A stretch of 64,000 nt of DNA, from the sequence record MK962758, one strand, 5' to 3'. The stretch comes from Shigella phage JK55. Shown here in pieces: positions 58,503 through 64,000 of the stretch. Position numbers and translations under genes: made by a program. Position 1 is the stretch's first letter; each line of letters opens with the position of its first letter. The notes below the pieces were generated by a model. It saw only the letters and a list, made by a program, of their open reading frames with translations, made no database searches and was not told where the DNA came from.

Positions 58503-59639
58503 TTACTCATAATCCCTAATAACTAGCCCAACAGGAAACTGTAAAGAACCCTTACGAGTCATCTTCTGGAACTGAACCGTTAAAGGTTTCCCGATAAACT
58601 CTTCAGGATGCTCAGCAAGATACTGTTTCTTCTCATGAGTAGTCTTCCATGAGACATCTACAAAGACGTTAGGAAGAGTCTCTACAACGAACTTACCGTG
58701 ACCACGTTTATCGGTCTTGACACCAGTCACTTTAAACTCTTCAGTGTGCATCTTCTTGTGCTTAATCAAGAAGTATGAACGGTGACAACACTCATAGAAG
58801 GAGTCTTCAGAGATTGAACGGTACATTGCACCTTCAAACTTAGCTTCAACCCACTTATCATGAGCTTCATCAAACTCTTCCCAAGAATTTACACGACGAG
58901 ATTTAACAGGGACAACTTTACAGCCGTCTCTAAAGTCATTCAATGGTGAAGTCTCAATAATATCTCTACGCTCAGGCCACGTTTTAGTACTGTCACAGAT
59001 ATCATACCAGTAGAACTTAAGTAAGTGTCTGTCAGGATTGTCTTCATTTTTAATCATGGAGACAATATCTTCTAAGTCCCACCCATGAGCATAAATCTCT
59101 CCATCAAATTCATCAACATCTTTGTGGAGCCTTAACATTGCCATAATGTCAGGTATTAGTTCAGTAGGGATTTTGTAAACAGTATTCTCACGAGAATATG
59201 CTGTAAATACACTGCCAATACTTAAGTGTCTTGAAATTCTACAACGTACACCATCAAGTTTTGGTTGAGCATCAGCAGGGAACTTCAGATACTTTGCATG
59301 ACTAACCTTTGCAGCATCATGAGCAAGTTGTACACCTACTTTCTCAGTATTCTTTGCAGACTCTTTTGTGTAAGCGTAGCCTTTACGGTCAACTTGCTTT
59401 TTATACTTAGCAGCAACTTCAAAGAGAGCTTGCTGTTCAGCGTTACGCTCATTCTTTTTACCGATGTTTTTCGGTTCTGCTGTGTACTCTTCAAACATCA
59501 TCTTGCCATTTTCTTTACCATAGGTTGTAATAACTTTGTCACCTACAGCAACGCATGACCAGACGTTGAAAGAGCCATCTTTATTTTGTTTGTATAGGAT
59601 TGTCATTTTTATTCCTCTGAGTGATACCAAGTATTGCAA
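58503..59639 (-). CDS. ATP-dependent DNA ligase
   Basis: Adenylation motif I KLDGVR (AQPKLDGVRCRIS); 378 aa. Confidence 0.75.
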   Translation of the reverse strand: MQYLVSLRGIKMTILYKQNKDGSFNVWSCVAVGDKVITTYGKENGKMMFEEYTAEPKNIGKKNERNAEQQALFEVAAKYKKQVDRKGYAYTKESAKNTEKVGVQLAHDAAKVSHAKYLKFPADAQPKLDGVRCRISRHLSIGSVFTAYSRENTVYKIPTELIPDIMAMLRLHKDVDEFDGEIYAHGWDLEDIVSMIKNEDNPDRHLLKFYWYDICDSTKTWPERRDIIETSPLNDFRDGCKVVPVKSRRVNSWEEFDEAHDKWVEAKFEGAMYRSISEDSFYECCHRSYFLIKHKKMHTEEFKVTGVKTDKRGHGKFVVETLPNVFVDVSWKTTHEKKQYLAEHPEEFIGKPLTVQFQKMTRKGSLQFPVGLVIRDYE

Positions 59640-59800
59640 GCATTACATGCGTAAAGCTCTAAGTCATTTTTATCTGGTTTATGAAAACAGTTTGCTCCGC
59701 AGTGGCAACGAAATGGCTTTCCACCAACTGTCAGGACGAAGGACTGAATCTTTCCATCAGGAGTCCGTACAGCATTTTTATGCTTATCTTCTTTGTTCAT
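59609..59800 (-). CDS. small zinc-finger protein
   Basis: CHCGANC ... CNAC Cys/His pattern. Confidence 0.45.
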   Translation of the reverse strand: MNKEDKHKNAVRTPDGKIQSFVLTVGGKPFRCHCGANCFHKPDKNDLELYACNACNTWYHSEE

Positions 59801-60102
59801 TTCCTCTTGCCACCAATTTCTACGTCAATAACTTGAACATCACCAGCAACATCAAACTTATGAATGATGCTTTCCACAGTGTAAGTCCAACCATCAATGC
59901 GAACCAACTCACCTTCTCGTGGGACGATTGGGTTACGTTGAGCTACCGTTGTAGTAGAGTGAACAACATCATAACAATAGATATAGTTTACTAGGACTTC
60001 CATCGTGAAACCCTCACTCAATAACCGTAGTGTGTGATTGACCATTTTTGCCATAGCTATAAGATGTTGTTGTTTGGGAGTTTGGACATCTGACAACAAC
60101 AA
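59797..60102 (-). CDS. hypothetical protein
   Basis: ORF 101 aa. Confidence 0.45.
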   Translation of the reverse strand: MLLSDVQTPKQQHLIAMAKMVNHTLRLLSEGFTMEVLVNYIYCYDVVHSTTTVAQRNPIVPREGELVRIDGWTYTVESIIHKFDVAGDVQVIDVEIGGKRK

Positions 60103-60250
60103 TATCTCTGCTTATAGCATCACCATGTAACTTGTATACTCTGCAATCTTGCATCTCTGGTGGGAGGCTGTAAGAAGCATTTTTATCTTCATAAGAAGGG
60201 TTGCAGCCAGATAGAAAAATAACACCAAGCGCAATTACTGATTTCCACAT
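60014..60250 (-). CDS. small lipoprotein (lipobox LSGC)
   Basis: MWKSVIALGVIFLSGC signal peptide; start taken at internal Met giving a canonical signal peptide. Confidence 0.5.
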   Translation of the reverse strand: MWKSVIALGVIFLSGCNPSYEDKNASYSLPPEMQDCRVYKLHGDAISRDIVVVRCPNSQTTTSYSYGKNGQSHTTVIE

Positions 60251-60437
60251 AATACACCCCTGTTTACTGTTCACGATGCTCTACTTCTCTGTATGTACGT
60301 CGATAATGAATGATAAGTGGTGCTAATTCATTGCTTTTAACATTTGAGCGTAACAGTTGCCAGTCAAAACCTTTACCAACTCTTCCATATAAATTAAAAA
60401 ACTTAACTTTGCGTTTCATTTTCGGTATCTCCAATAT

Positions 60438-60665
60438 TCAGAGGTTAATATTAATACGTTCGCCCTTAAGGACTCCAGTACGGTCCCTTGCAATCTTACC
60501 ATCAACAATAAGGATATGCGCAGACCTTAAAGAGTCATTATTAAAACCTTTTACGAACTTACTAGGCATCACTACAATAAGCATCTCCTGAATCAACTCT
60601 GGAGTATAGCAGTTATCATGAAGTTGTTGGATAACGTCTGCAAGTGTCATTTTTGATGTCTCCAA
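60438..60665 (-). CDS. hypothetical small protein
   Basis: ORF 75 aa in minus-strand block. Confidence 0.4.
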   Translation of the reverse strand: METSKMTLADVIQQLHDNCYTPELIQEMLIVVMPSKFVKGFNNDSLRSAHILIVDGKIARDRTGVLKGERININL

Positions 60666-60856
60666 TACTCAATGTCAATAAGTTCTTGTGCAATGCTTTT
60701 CAGATTACCTTTCAAGAAAACCTTCTCAGAACCTGAAAGAGATGAATTGTCAATTAACCTGTTCATTCTCTCAAACAACTTCTGCTTACGGTTCTTGATA
60801 GTTTCCTTTGAAGCGCCTTTCATCATCGCTGCATGGGTTCTTCCACGATGGCTCAT
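60647..60856 (-). CDS. hypothetical small basic protein
   Basis: ORF 69 aa. Confidence 0.4.
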   Translation of the reverse strand: MSHRGRTHAAMMKGASKETIKNRKQKLFERMNRLIDNSSLSGSEKVFLKGNLKSIAQELIDIEYWRHQK

Positions 60857-60907
60857 AAGTCCTCCTATACAAGATATTGTATAAGGTACTCTTCCCTGAG
60901 CACCTTG

Positions 60908-61459
60908 TCAAGATAGTTTTGCAAACTCTCCGTGGAGTTTAATAGCAGCTTCACAGTAAGCTTTATGGGCTTCTTCTGGTGTGTCAAACATACCAAGATG
61001 ATAGTTTTTACCTTGTAAACGTATCATTGCTCGAAACCTTTTACTTATCTTCTGTACACCTTTTGGCAACCCAGATGGGGACTCTCTTGACCGATTGCAA
61101 GAGTTTTGTGAAGCTGTACAAACCCTTAAATTCAAGTACCTATTGTCCCAACCGTCCCCATTCTTATGGTCAACCTGTAAGGTTTTATCAGGTAGATATC
61201 CATCCATATACAAGATAACTAAACGATTTGCTTGGTAACCCCTTCCATCAATCAGCAACTGAACTGACTTGTGTCCATCAGTATTTGTTCTGTAGTTTCC
61301 AGCCCTCTTACCTCCAAATCTAGAGTTAAAGTTTGCATTACCTTCTCTAAACTTCCAAGTAAAGACCCCTGTTTCGGGGTCGTAGTCCAATAGCTCCTTA
61401 AGACGAATTTCTGTAATCATTTCAACACCATCAATGCACTTCCAACCAGCTCTTACCAA
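60908..61459 (-). CDS. HNH homing endonuclease with AP2-type DNA-binding domain
   Basis: HNH core QVDHKNGDGWDNRYLNLRVCT and C-terminal KGV...FRAMI..QGKNYHLGMF.TPEEA..AY..A...LHGEFA (AP2-like); sits at the 3' end of the DNA polymerase gene, overlapping its stop. Confidence 0.7.
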   Translation of the reverse strand: MVRAGWKCIDGVEMITEIRLKELLDYDPETGVFTWKFREGNANFNSRFGGKRAGNYRTNTDGHKSVQLLIDGRGYQANRLVILYMDGYLPDKTLQVDHKNGDGWDNRYLNLRVCTASQNSCNRSRESPSGLPKGVQKISKRFRAMIRLQGKNYHLGMFDTPEEAHKAYCEAAIKLHGEFAKLS

Positions 61460-64000
61460 CCTTACCTGTGCCAGTTACAAGCGTCTCACTCTTCAAACCT
61501 AAATTCTTAGATGCCTGACCATACATCCAGTCAGTTATGGCTTTAACTTCTTGAGTCATACTTTCTGGGCACTCCCAACTGTTTTCATCGTGGTATGCCA
61601 GCAAAAGCCTAGCACCAATTGCTGGTTTTCGTCCATTTAATTTTGTCAACCCTTCTTCACATGCTCTTCTACAAGCAAGGTTAATTGCCTCATTTTGAAT
61701 CTGAGCCTCTGAACCCATCAAAAGATAGTTCAATAATTTGTGTGGAGATTTACACCACAACCAAGCTCCTGCAACCTTTACAAAACCTCCTTTAGAGATT
61801 GCAGCAGTCTTACCAAACACCTCTTCAAGTGCCTTTTTAGTTGCTTTGTAGTCAGCTTCCAAGTCATCTAGCAGCTTCTTAATTTTAGGCAAACGAATAA
61901 AGTAAGTCTGTTTAGTTAGTGCGCCTTCCTGAGTAGTTGCAGCTTTAATCGTCTTAGCAAACTTCTCATCACCTGCACCGAACAGCAGTGCATAGATACC
62001 ATTCTTAGCTTTCTTACGACCCTTACTAATCTCATGGAGAAGGTTCTCATCCTGAGTAGCACGACAAGTCAAGATGTCCTGCTCATCATTCAAGCTAAAG
62101 TAAATACTATTCAGTGTATGCGCATCAGTCCCTGAATAGACAACATACAGGTCATTCTCAGAGTCATAACGAAGGTACTTATCAATCTCTGGGTTGAGGT
62201 ACTCATCAAAGTGTTTGCAGTAATAGCGTCCATCTTCTTGACGAATAAACTCAATCTCTTCTTTACCTTGCGTTACCGCTTTGGTGAAGTCTTTGTCACC
62301 CATAAAGTTACAAAGGAGAACTAGCTGGGCTGAGTTCATGTCTACAGAGACAACGTTAGTACCTTCTTCACAAATCCACACTGCCCTCATTGGTTCCCCA
62401 TAGACAGCAGCACCAGACGGTACGTTTACAATACCATATTGTGTCATACGTCCAGTTGAAGTGCCAAATACCATTGCACCAGCACTAAGGCGACCATCAG
62501 GACGAATCTGGTTCAACCAACCTTTTTCATCATCTTTTGAGTTCTCAATAGTTCTGCGTCGGTGCATTAAAGTATAGTACTTAGCAATCTTCTGTCCAAG
62601 CTCACCTTCAATCGTATCATAAGATGATTCAGTAAGTTTTGGTGAAGTACGGATTAAGCAAGGCTCAAGCAAATCTGTGTACTTCTTCACAGACCAGTTA
62701 TGCTCAATGTACTGTACACCTTCGTGCTCAACATAGCTCAAACCACACCGCTCAACCATTTCCTGCCACTTAGGATGTTTTGTAATCATCTTTTTATTGT
62801 CTTTGAAACGACAAACTTTGACAGGGCGACCGTCTGAGTCTTTCTTGTAGTTCCAGTCATCTGGAATCCAACCAACTGATTTCAAGTAGTCTTTAACAAC
62901 TGCTACCTGAGTCATACGAGAAACTTCAAACTCAATTGGTGTATATGGTGCATCAATCAAACCTGTGTAGCGACTTGACTCAAGTTCAAAGTGGTTAACA
63001 ACGTGGCTGTTATAGTACTTCACAGTTTTGACTGTTTTTACTGGCTTCCAGTCTTTGCATTTCTTACCAATCTTTGCATTCAACTCATTGCAAATTGCAC
63101 GAGCATCCTTCATTGCTACAAAACCTTCCTTGTACTCTTCACCAGTTACAGAGTTGGTTGGTGTATAGCAATTCCTTTTTTCAATGTTAAAAATCTTTGT
63201 AGTTGGCTTACCAAATGGTTTGATTTCATAAGTCTGCATCTCACCATTACGTACCTGCTGACGATACTTTGTCTTAGGGTACTTGGTAATTCTTTTCAGT
63301 CCATCTGCATGACCAAATGTTTCAACATACTCATTCCAAGCTTTTGCAAACTCTTCTCCAGTGACTTTACCTTTGGTCTTAATAGTTGGAGGTAGATGTG
63401 GTTCAACCTCTGAAGCAAGCTCATTAGTCAACTTGTCAAGCTCCTTTACATGGAACTCCATAAGCTCTTTATCAGCTTTCCAACCATTGATAGCTTGTTG
63501 ACTCATCCAGAAAGATGTTTCTTTAGCTCGCATGTAAGTTTCATAAGTGTCTATACCACACTTCTTAAGCTTGAGATACTCGTTATCAAGTGCCCGTTTA
63601 GTTTTGGCATTAATACGGATATCTTCTACAACACGAGTGAAGATTTCTGCATTCCACACACCCCAATGTTCAATCTCTGGTTTACGGACACCAACACGAG
63701 CACCCCATGCAGCCAAACCATGAGCACCTTTATAGCCCTTTGGAGTTGGTCTATCCATCCACTGAACACGGGACTGGATAAGAGAATCCTGAAAGAAATT
63801 ACTCCACGGTTTACACTTTGGATTATCAAAGTTCCATAAATCAGGTGCAATGTGATTAAAAACCCACCAGTCATAACCGAGACCATTATGGATGCAAAGA
63901 CGTTTTGCCTTTAACGCAAATTCAACACCTTCACGTAAACCACCTTTGATGTACTTAGTGTACTTGTGACCGAGGATAGGCTCATCTGTAAAGACCCATA
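61431..64000 (-). CDS. DNA polymerase, family A (T7-like), 5' end beyond window
   Basis: Motif A VDMNSAQLVLLCNFM, motif B RKKAKNGIYALLFGAG, motif C LAYHDE; reading frame stays open upstream of the track ATG (63758) to the window edge and includes an exonuclease-like HNGLGYD segment. Confidence 0.75.
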   Translation of the reverse strand, partial: WVFTDEPILGHKYTKYIKGGLREGVEFALKAKRLCIHNGLGYDWWVFNHIAPDLWNFDNPKCKPWSNFFQDSLIQSRVQWMDRPTPKGYKGAHGLAAWGARVGVRKPEIEHWGVWNAEIFTRVVEDIRINAKTKRALDNEYLKLKKCGIDTYETYMRAKETSFWMSQQAINGWKADKELMEFHVKELDKLTNELASEVEPHLPPTIKTKGKVTGEEFAKAWNEYVETFGHADGLKRITKYPKTKYRQQVRNGEMQTYEIKPFGKPTTKIFNIEKRNCYTPTNSVTGEEYKEGFVAMKDARAICNELNAKIGKKCKDWKPVKTVKTVKYYNSHVVNHFELESSRYTGLIDAPYTPIEFEVSRMTQVAVVKDYLKSVGWIPDDWNYKKDSDGRPVKVCRFKDNKKMITKHPKWQEMVERCGLSYVEHEGVQYIEHNWSVKKYTDLLEPCLIRTSPKLTESSYDTIEGELGQKIAKYYTLMHRRRTIENSKDDEKGWLNQIRPDGRLSAGAMVFGTSTGRMTQYGIVNVPSGAAVYGEPMRAVWICEEGTNVVSVDMNSAQLVLLCNFMGDKDFTKAVTQGKEEIEFIRQEDGRYYCKHFDEYLNPEIDKYLRYDSENDLYVVYSGTDAHTLNSIYFSLNDEQDILTCRATQDENLLHEISKGRKKAKNGIYALLFGAGDEKFAKTIKAATTQEGALTKQTYFIRLPKIKKLLDDLEADYKATKKALEEVFGKTAAISKGGFVKVAGAWLWCKSPHKLLNYLLMGSEAQIQNEAINLACRRACEEGLTKLNGRKPAIGARLLLAYHDENSWECPESMTQEVKAITDWMYGQASKNLGLKSETLVTGTGKVGKSWLEVH

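Follow-up and report, generated by a model that had tools for sequence, protein, structure and literature searches.

An HNH-AP2 endonuclease gene of patchy distribution behind the DNA polymerase gene of Shigella phage JK55

Introduction

In the 64,000-nt stretch of DNA from Shigella phage JK55 that was analyzed here (the window), an ORF for an HNH endonuclease directly follows a gene for a family A DNA polymerase. This arrangement raises two questions, namely whether the HNH gene is a mobile element which targets a replication gene and whether the polymerase, which is long ahead of its motif A, carries an insertion itself.

The window is the genome of a Felixounavirus (FelixO1-like) with 98% identity to the phages NRG857CP1 and ekra. 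The pairing of the polymerase with a trailing HNH gene is genuine but ordinary, as it is already annotated in public phage genomes, and it is likewise known that the HNH-AP2 gene behind the polymerase of FelixO1-like phages is carried by some close relatives only. In this genus, which is well sampled and serves in the biocontrol of Salmonella and E. coli, the locus represents a standard hot spot of homing endonucleases. HNH-AP2 endonucleases of Bacteriophage Felix 01 (PMC4237383) and of phage RB49 are cited in the AP2/ERF literature, and six HNH copies were reported for FelixO1 (PMC3185647). The features of the locus are listed in Table 1.

Table 1. Coordinates of the features at the polymerase-HNH locus; amino acid positions of the polymerase refer to the part encoded in the window.
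Feature	Position	Strand	Basis
Family A, T7 gp5-like DNA polymerase gene, 3′ 2570 nt	61431..64000	-	Pfam, PHROG, PDB, fold match
Exo II, HNGLGYD	aa 37	-	alignment
Exo III region, VEDI (invariant D126)	aa 124	-	alignment
Part between Exo III and motif A with three lineage-specific expansions	62673..63326	-	alignment with ~705-aa relatives and T7 gp5
Motif A, SVDMNSAQL	aa 551	-	alignment
Fourth expansion, between motifs A and B	62172..62261 (aa 580-609)	-	alignment
Motif B, RKKAKNGIYALLFGAG	aa 661	-	alignment
Unoccupied site of group I intron insertion within motif B, GCAC/TGCTG (Y-A-L-L-F-G)	61987..61988	-	alignment of intron-plus and intron-less loci
Motif C, YHDE	aa 802	-	alignment
Polymerase gene 3′ end, divergent haplotype	61431..61672	-	binned identity, dot alignments
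Four-codon mini-ORF, ATGGTGTTGAAATGA	61417..61431	-	read from the sequence
Present/absent block, 519 nt replacing 6 nt (TTAGTA)	60912..61430	-	junction alignments with fjerdesal, wV8 and others
Free-standing HNH-AP2 homing endonuclease gene (probable), type A allele, 170 aa	60908..61420 (stop included)	-	Pfam, PHROG, PDB
GC-rich hairpin GACCCCGAAACAGGGGTC followed by TTTACTT, within the HNH ORF (codons D-P-E-T-G-V)	61364..61381	-	terminator-like match
HNH_3 (beta-beta-alpha-Me) nuclease core, aa 63-107 of 170, VDHKNGDGWDNRYLNLRVCTASQN	61100..61234	-	Pfam, alignment with I-HmuI
AP2-like DNA-binding domain, aa 124-164	60929..61051	-	Pfam AP2, sub-threshold (26.6 bits, cut-off 33.3)
Conserved intergenic block, TTGACA-led	60857..60911	-	junction alignments

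DNA Polymerase Gene

The frame of the polymerase gene stays open from its TGA stop codon (61433-61431) up to the window edge at position 64000, and 855 of the 906 amino acids found for the full gene in relatives are encoded within the window. The full CDS is annotated in ekra. DNA_pol_A is the only Pfam match (58.5 bits, cut-off 34.3), PHROG 17 was matched with an E-value of 1e-102, and all matches to Pol I models of NCBIfam were below threshold. T7 gp5 is the best sequence match in the PDB as well as the top Foldseek match (E 5e-24) of the AF2 model, which has a pLDDT of 90.1. With DNA_pol_A, motifs A to C, Exo II and Exo III and the T7-like fold, the protein is a T7 gp5-like polymerase of family A. 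Exo I is visible only in the polymerases of full-length relatives, as its position falls outside the window.

Like T7 gp5, the FelixO1-like polymerase has conserved Exo I to III and motifs A to C. A gene for an ATP-dependent ligase belongs to its operon, and a T7-like primase-helicase is present in FelixO1. In contrast to these similarities, the identity to T7 gp5 is only 16-18% in the structural alignment, the region of the thioredoxin-binding loop differs, and the protein is about 200 amino acids longer by means of about eight expansions (215 amino acids in total).

The preliminary description of the locus had pointed out a long region between the exonuclease part and motif A and had considered that it could be an insertion. 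The length is real, since this region comprises about 427 amino acids and the corresponding region of T7 gp5 roughly 300, but it does not go back to a single insertion. Alignment to T7 gp5 and to relatives of about 705 amino acids, relative to which the expansions were called, defined lineage-specific in-frame expansions, three of which are located before motif A (window-encoded aa 225-253, aa 277-328 and aa 395-442) and further ones past it. At least seven extra segments of 7-52 amino acids each are scattered over the protein. They are fixed across the subfamily, with the same length down to 63% identity, and they fold confidently in the AF2 model (pLDDT 71-89). The extra length consists of several ancient in-frame expansions.

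An intein or a single mobile insertion is ruled out by the continuous ORF, the absence of a Hint domain and the scattered, subfamily-conserved segments. Signs of an intein or intron were not found in the window polymerase, which is a single ORF with intron-less spacing at motif B (59-nt gap). It is a normal T7-type enzyme, neither split nor invaded in this genome. The value of the results on the locus and on the polymerase lies mainly in annotation.

HNH-AP2 Gene

The longest ORF for the HNH protein begins with a TTG at 61459 (60908-61459, minus strand, 183 amino acids) and overlaps the polymerase gene by 29 nt. The preliminary description had placed the start of the HNH gene inside the final codons of the polymerase gene, which holds only for this TTG. 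It is not conserved as a start across the alleles; the start common to them is the ATG at 61420, which is located 10 nt past the polymerase TGA and is preceded by GGTG. The overlap is thus an artefact of choosing the start of the longest ORF. Annotated starts vary as well, with the overlapping TTG in ekra and an upstream ATG, absent from the window, in warpig and Mushroom.

The ORF matches Pfam HNH_3 (E 6e-12, 45.4 bits, cut-off 24.8; aa 76-120 in the numbering of the 183-aa ORF) and PHROG 99, "HNH endonuclease" (E 7e-60), whereas no model of NCBIfam was matched. Its best sequence match in the PDB is I-HmuI (1U3E, E 1.7e-3), with which the intact catalytic pattern VDHKNG...NLR...SQN (DH...NLR...QN) lines up. 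In the C-terminal part, the AP2 domain scores above the Pfam cut-off in the sister types B, C and D (38-51 bits), whose C-terminal helix is identical to that of the window allele, and the AP2 domains of the plant ERF proteins ERF096 (E 0.016) and WRI1 match this part in the PDB. The gene is an own ORF between genes, in a separate frame past the polymerase stop and outside any intron or intein. In warpig, which has the same type A allele, and in VSe11, which has type B, Rfam searched at a relaxed threshold (E up to 0.1) gave the motif B intron of the polymerase gene as the only match and nothing around the HNH gene.

The nucleotide sequence of the gene matches ekra_59 ("HNH endonuclease") with 100% identity and others with 97.7-99.6%, and the annotation in ekra, Alf5, Mushroom and further phages reads HNH (homing) endonuclease. 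The Felix O1-like HNH-AP2 genes ekra_59, Mushroom gp38 and that of Alf5 have the same HNH_3 plus AP2 architecture at the same place behind the polymerase. There is no substantial difference between them and the window gene except for the chosen start codon.

I-HmuI of the Bacillus phage SPO1 is a nicking HNH homing endonuclease encoded in a group I intron of the DNA polymerase gene, so that both enzymes occur in connection with a phage polymerase gene. The N-terminal region and beta-beta-alpha-Me core of I-HmuI align with the window protein. However, the similarity is weak, and I-HmuI is intron-encoded with a different C-terminal DNA-binding module, whereas the window gene is free-standing and intergenic with an AP2-type C-terminus.

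The polymerase gene and the HNH gene are connected by a four-codon mini-ORF, the ATG of which overlaps with the stop codon of the former (TGATG) and the TGA of which overlaps with the start codon of the latter (ATGA). Type B alleles have their HNH ATG at the first position of this mini-ORF. A function in translational coupling may be assumed from this arrangement. On the other side, the TGA of the TTGACA-led block doubles as the HNH stop, and the next gene (60647-60856) belongs to PHROG 5180 of unknown function. A sigma-70 promoter in this block was not called by the scan, and its -10 element at 17-nt spacing is poor.

Presence, Absence and Allele Types

Presence or absence of the HNH gene, allele type and intron state were scored at 37 loci. 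The gene is missing from 14 of them (about 38%) by an indel of about 513 nt with clean edges, with the polymerase and the neighbouring genes intact. Eleven of these HNH-less loci have a 9-nt gap between the anchors compared to 522 nt, and three differ in the arrangement of the downstream genes. In the HNH-less junction, the polymerase stop is followed by TTAGTA and TTGACAAGG, which places the insertion site between the polymerase stop and the TTGACA-led block; the latter is kept with and without the HNH gene. Among 260 GenBank records matching the region, 160 show any HNH match at the sensitivity used.

Four HNH-AP2 types with 39-51% amino acid identity occupy this one site in different relatives, and all 23 occupied loci have a full-length HNH ORF without frameshifts. 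Sporadic presence with precise boundaries among close relatives is expected of a mobile endonuclease gene, and the preliminary description, which had read the arrangement in this way, is borne out by the 14 loci without HNH gene, the exact junction and the other alleles at the identical site. The opposite outcome, an HNH gene at the same place in all relatives without any indel, was looked for and not seen.

Mosaic Flanks and Divergence

Compared to the HNH-less phage fjerdesal, the window is 100% identical over 61800-62200, but identity falls to about 75% in the final ~240 nt of the polymerase gene, which appear from this drop to be a foreign haplotype. With ekra, the window shares this haplotype without differences and a mismatch-free tract over at least 58901-61600 (2.7 kb), flanked by regions which differ by 2-4%. 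The polymerase 3′ haplotype and the HNH gene do not always go together: a haplotype like that of the window was found at three HNH-less loci (L025-L027), and either haplotype can accompany types B and C. Ordinary recombination in the generally mosaic Felixounaviruses could yield the same mosaic tracts.

The synonymous divergence of the HNH gene is far below that of the backbone, with a dS of 0.34 versus 1.0-1.2 between the window and locus L032 and of 0.038 versus 0.32 between the window and Mushroom. By this measure, the HNH gene seems to be younger than the backbone. Its dN/dS is well below 1 over the whole gene and 0.11 at the deepest comparison, which indicates a maintained protein.

Proposed Mode of Spread

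Taken as a whole, the ORF at 61420-60908 very probably encodes a free-standing HNH homing endonuclease with an I-HmuI-like core and an AP2-type DNA-binding domain, and constitutes a selfish cassette. The cassette sits in the early replication operon, exactly between the polymerase stop and the predicted conserved leader of the next gene. From the sequence, we infer a nuclease activity with a target at or near the locus, as well as the mode of expression and the homing process outlined here. The HNH gene would be co-transcribed with the polymerase gene and weakly translated from the ATG at 61420 by means of the Shine-Dalgarno-like element GGTG, possibly by termination-reinitiation via the four-codon bridge ORF. 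In a mixed infection, the enzyme would then nick or cut near the locus in genomes which lack the cassette or carry another allele, and recombinational repair would copy the cassette plus flanking DNA (co-conversion). Such homing with co-conversion would lead to the patchy distribution, the replacement of alleles and the mosaic 3′ end of the polymerase gene.

A comparable behaviour is known from the free-standing Seg and Mob endonucleases of T4-type phages, in which SegH and Hef replace mobC and mobE at the same sites. Common to both are the intergenic cassette, the patchy spread, genes sharing one site and mosaic flanks resembling co-conversion. However, Seg proteins belong to the GIY-YIG family, AP2 is missing from the Mob proteins of the HNH type, and the activity of the T4-type enzymes was demonstrated experimentally, whereas that of the window protein is predicted.

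The purifying selection at the deepest comparison would also fit a domesticated nuclease kept by phage selection, which benefits the phage either by marker exclusion of co-infecting relatives or by nicks that start recombination-dependent replication. The position in the early replication operon directly behind the polymerase and the retention of some allele at the site in more than half of the sampled relatives agree with this. Nevertheless, such a domestication is unlikely, since the sampled relatives without the gene have an intact polymerase and intact neighbours, and the turnover of alleles and a dS lower than that of the backbone are predicted for selfish spread. Exclusion of competitors is moreover a normal by-product of homing and therefore hard to tell apart from the selfish cassette itself.

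The conserved 3′ end of the gene bears on a further explanation, according to which the ORF is a decaying, inactive relic or a non-cutting AP2-type protein which only regulates the promoter-like TTGACA block downstream. The HNH stop lies inside this block, the DNA sequence of the last 70 nt is conserved between all alleles, and AP2 is a transcription-factor fold in plants. However, the catalytic His/Asn pattern is intact in the alignment to I-HmuI, the ORF is neither truncated nor frameshifted at any occupied locus and its dN/dS is low, and the HNH-less phages retain the TTGACA block without the gene, which makes a relic or mere regulator very improbable.

Group I Intron in Motif B of Relatives

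In about 37% of the relatives, motif B of the polymerase gene is interrupted by a group I intron that is not annotated and that the window lacks. It is inserted in the sequence GCACTGCTG and has a length of about 270, 311 or ~805 nt. The motif B intron of warpig matches Rfam RF00028 with 63.3 bits, and 97 GenBank records contain at least 80% of the intron. The long form has its own Endonuclease_7 ORF. No paper on a polymerase intron in Felixounavirus was found in a literature search. Due to this widespread intron, two CDS named "DNA polymerase" appear in many GenBank records, which could be useful to know for annotators and engineers.

In warpig, garuso and Mushroom, an ORF-less form is located about 555 nt upstream of the HNH gene. 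This resembles the collaborative homing described for the psbA gene of cyanophages, in which case the HNH enzyme would cut the intron site in motif B. The distribution largely refutes this explanation, which is extremely improbable: HNH gene and intron assort independently and occur in all four combinations, as the window and ekra have the HNH gene without the intron, L025-L028 have the intron without the HNH gene, and loci with both or neither were also found. Furthermore, the long intron encodes an endonuclease of its own, and the window, despite its HNH gene, has an unprotected intron-less site identical to that of the HNH-less fjerdesal.

Conserved DNA Elements within the HNH Alleles

About 40 nt into the HNH ORF, a hairpin of the form GACCCC-N6-GGGGTC with a T-rich tail was identified, which occurs once in the window. 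The RNA hairpin has a dG of -12.8 kcal/mol, and it is encoded by rare codons (joint usage probability 1.4e-4). Its stem does not vary between any of the alleles at the site downstream of the polymerase, so that support by covariation is impossible. Besides the hairpin, the four types share ~97% identity in the last ~70 nt of the HNH gene (about 60911-60980), whereas their proteins are otherwise only 39-51% identical.

It is possible, if rather doubtful, that the hairpin and the 3′ block are conserved cis-acting modules which belong to the element and not to the protein. In that case, read-through from the polymerase into the nuclease gene would be throttled by the hairpin as an attenuator or terminator, and nuclease specificities would be swapped at one site with the 3′ block and the hairpin patch as a homology anchor. 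The observations on hairpin and intron leave the understanding of homing endonucleases unchanged. A hairpin conserved in every HNH allele may be useful to phage annotators and engineers.

Further HNH copies were not detected in the 64-kb window by tblastn with all four allele types. A second HNH-AP2 site exists in Felixounavirus, the flanks of which are absent from the window, and an exact-motif scan recovered the same hairpin 18-mer in the paralogues at this second site.

Presence and Variants of the HNH Endonuclease Gene

The G+C content is ~39%. In a megablast search, the stretch 60400-64000, which carries its genes on the minus strand, matched 260 phage records, nearly all from FelixO1-like myoviruses of the genus Felixounavirus. 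The closest over the full query were Felixounavirus NRG857CP1 (98.4%) and Escherichia phage ekra (98.0%). The HNH endonuclease ORF abutting a family A DNA polymerase gene, as noted in the preliminary description, was borne out by Pfam and PHROG matches. The ORF 60908-61459 contains an HNH_3 domain (Pfam, E 6e-12) and matches PHROG 99 "HNH endonuclease" (E 7e-60). Its AP2-like C-terminus reaches 26.6 bits, below the Pfam cut-off of 33.3. Among PDB sequences the protein matches I-HmuI best, an HNH nicking enzyme encoded in the polymerase intron of SPO1, and the catalytic patterns of the two align; plant ERF/WRI1 AP2 domains come next.

This is a known element at its customary position: the gene is annotated as HNH (homing) endonuclease across many GenBank records and HNH genes of Felixounavirus have been published. 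Six HNH endonuclease copies were reported for the FelixO1 genome (PMC3185647), HNH-AP2 endonucleases of "Bacteriophage Felix 01" were cited as relatives of the plant AP2 domain (PMC4237383), and the number of homing endonuclease genes varies within Felixounavirus (PMC8300805). The main finding adds nothing new to what is known, and the original observation is confirmed except for the start-codon overlap and the idea of a single insertion in the polymerase.

The HNH gene was scored in 37 loci, namely the window, 6 from GenBank and 30 from IMG/VR. In 11 of them, 9 nt separate the last polymerase codon from a conserved block (TTGACAAGGTGCTCA...), compared to 522 nt in the window; three further loci also lack the gene and show a different downstream gene arrangement. 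The junction without HNH gene reads ...CAC TAA TTAGTA TTGACAAGG, and that of the window ...CAT TGA, followed by 519 nt and TTGACAAGG; the TGA inside TTGACA serves as HNH stop codon. Judged from this alignment, the junction is exact. The remaining 23 loci are occupied by four divergent HNH-AP2 types, A (window), B, C, and D, which share 39-51% protein identity and are full length throughout; in types B, C, and D the AP2 domain scores 38-51 bits, over the Pfam threshold. In GenBank, 27 records contain type A along 80% or more of its length, and 160 of the 260 records matching the region have some HNH gene match. Rather than the same gene at the same position in all relatives without an indel signature, which by the preliminary description would have refuted its reading, an exact indel and alternative alleles were observed; this supports the proposed reading as a mobile endonuclease.

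The last 24 amino acids are identical across types A-D, and the 3′ end of the gene, which encodes the AP2 C-terminal helix (...TPEEAHKAYCEAAIKLHGEFAKLS), is ~97% identical at the DNA level. This block, missing from HNH-less genomes, is a possible site of crossover when alleles are exchanged. At a second Felixounavirus locus outside the 64-kb window, the HNH-AP2 gene likewise occurs as several divergent alleles (MLTQQTLKEYLHYDPETGVFTW...), in ten sampled relative loci (L041, L042, L044, L048, L052, L053, and L057-L060). Multi-allelic endonuclease hot spots therefore recur in the genus.

Features at the polymerase 3′ end, in the polymerase and nearby (L numbers, sampled relative loci; aa numbers refer to the window-encoded part of the polymerase)
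Feature	Position	Strand	Remarks
Ligase gene (ATP-dependent DNA ligase)	58503-59639	minus	Pfam DNA_ligase_A_M and OB domain; PHROG 114, E 1e-95
Conserved 3′ block of HNH gene	~60911-60980	minus	last ~70 nt
Hairpin GACCCCGAAACAGGGGTC, then TTTACTT	61381-61364	minus	inside HNH ORF; GACCCC-N6-GGGGTC and T-rich tail
Four-codon ORF ATGGTGTTGAAATGA	61431-61417	minus	bridges polymerase stop (TGATG) and HNH start (ATGA)
Empty intron site	61987-61988	minus	intron-less allele
Extra segments between Exo III and motif A	aa 225-236, 247-253, 277-328, 395-442	minus	alignment
Extra segment between motifs A and B	aa 580-609	minus	alignment
Further extra segments	aa 722-733, 787-796	minus	alignment
Motif B intron, examples	L002:4545-4860; L003; L006:4555-5360; L024-L028

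Start Codon and Hairpin

The HNH ORF had been described as starting within the last polymerase codons. This holds for the longest ORF, with the start TTG 61459 chosen by the annotators of ekra, but the ATG at 61420 (MITEIRLKELL...), which is conserved in types A and C and preceded by GGTG, lies 10 nt past the polymerase TGA. The upstream ATG used in the phages warpig and Mushroom reads TGG in the window. Type B alleles have their HNH ATG at the first position of the four-codon ORF, where it overlaps the polymerase stop. This overlap and the bridging ORF suggest that HNH translation could be coupled to that of the polymerase by termination-reinitiation.

A hairpin (dG -12.8 kcal/mol), present in a single copy in the window, may act as an attenuator or a recombination anchor. 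Its loop is variable, and its stem is invariant in all HNH-AP2 alleles at the site. HNH-AP2 paralogues at a second genomic site contain the identical 18-mer, but this set was gathered by exact-motif search and is thus not independent evidence of stem conservation. The stem lies in rare codons (CCC is 1 of 48 proline codons in the three genes counted), with a joint usage probability of 1.4e-4.

Mosaic Flanks and Divergence

Compared to the HNH-less phage fjerdesal, the window polymerase is 100% identical at ~61800-62200 and then ~75% over the last ~240 nt (61431-61672). Compared to ekra, there are zero mismatches from at least 61600 to 58901 (at least 2.7 kb), a tract that runs from the polymerase 3′ end across the HNH gene and four to five small ORFs into the beginning of the ligase gene; outside it, the two genomes differ by 2-4%. 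A clear mosaic junction is apparent from these alignments around 61600-61800. Type A occurs with the window-like polymerase 3′ haplotype in 7 of 7 loci, and 11 of 14 HNH-less loci carry the other haplotype, but the linkage is incomplete, and types B and C were found with both.

Synonymous sites have diverged far less in the HNH gene than in the adjacent polymerase gene (dS 0.34 versus 1.0-1.2 against the relative locus L032; 0.038 versus 0.32 against Mushroom), and the dN/dS of the HNH gene is 0.11-0.5. By these values, the gene is of more recent origin than the DNA around it and remains constrained as a protein. Mosaic flanks and low dS fit intron-less homing with co-conversion; general recombination in the mosaic Felixounaviruses could also yield both.

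In some GenBank relatives, the ligase gene is annotated as two overlapping "DNA ligase" CDS, an upstream 63-aa ORF and the main ORF.

Extra Length in the DNA Polymerase

The ORF call at the polymerase gives 775 aa (61431-63758), but the frame is open upstream to the window edge, so that 855 codons at the 3′ end of the gene fall within the window; the complete gene encodes 906 aa in the phages ekra, wV8, and FelixO1. The protein matches Pfam DNA_pol_A (58.5 bits, cut-off 34.3) and PHROG 17 (E 1e-102), and its top match is T7 gp5, both by sequence among solved structures and by predicted fold: an AlphaFold2 model built with 31 homologues (mean pLDDT 90.1) gave T7 DNA polymerase chains throughout as top fold matches (E 5e-24, probability 1.0). 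Of the conserved motifs, the window encodes Exo II, the Exo III aspartate and motifs A-C, and Exo I (DxE) was found in full-length homologues.

The long region between the exonuclease-like segment and motif A had been considered a possible insertion. Alignment with T7 gp5 and with ~705-aa protein-database relatives (35-39% identity) showed extra residues in separate segments, 171 in sum when compared to these shorter proteins and 215 when compared to T7. The scatter over several segments rules out a single insertion. The segments are predicted to be structured (pLDDT 71-89, beta-rich elements), have the same length in relatives down to 63% identity (loci L031 and L035) and diverge like the rest of the gene. 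No Hint/intein signal (Pfam) and no intron (motif B site spacing and alignment with intron-bearing alleles) were found in the window polymerase. The term insertion thus applies only if it means lineage-specific expansions in the thumb and fingers that are old and fixed.

A Group I Intron in Polymerase Motif B of Relatives

In relatives, motif B (YA/LLFGAG; slash, intron site) is interrupted by a group I intron (Rfam RF00028, 63.3 bits), at least 80% of which is present in 97 GenBank Felixounavirus records. It occurs in forms of ~270, 311, and 805 nt, the longest with an Endonuclease_7 ORF (Pfam, 71 bits). The FelixO1 genome paper states that introns are absent (PMC3185647), and a literature search found no paper describing a Felixounavirus polymerase intron. 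Intron and HNH gene assort independently among the scored loci, which argues against collaborative homing of the two.

All inspected records, and the feature lists among the sampled rows, give the intron-bearing polymerase as two "DNA polymerase" CDS, with no intron annotated in any of them. The proposed splice junction (...GCGT/TATTG...) restores YALLFGAG, with four synonymous differences from the intron-less sequence GCACTGCTG.
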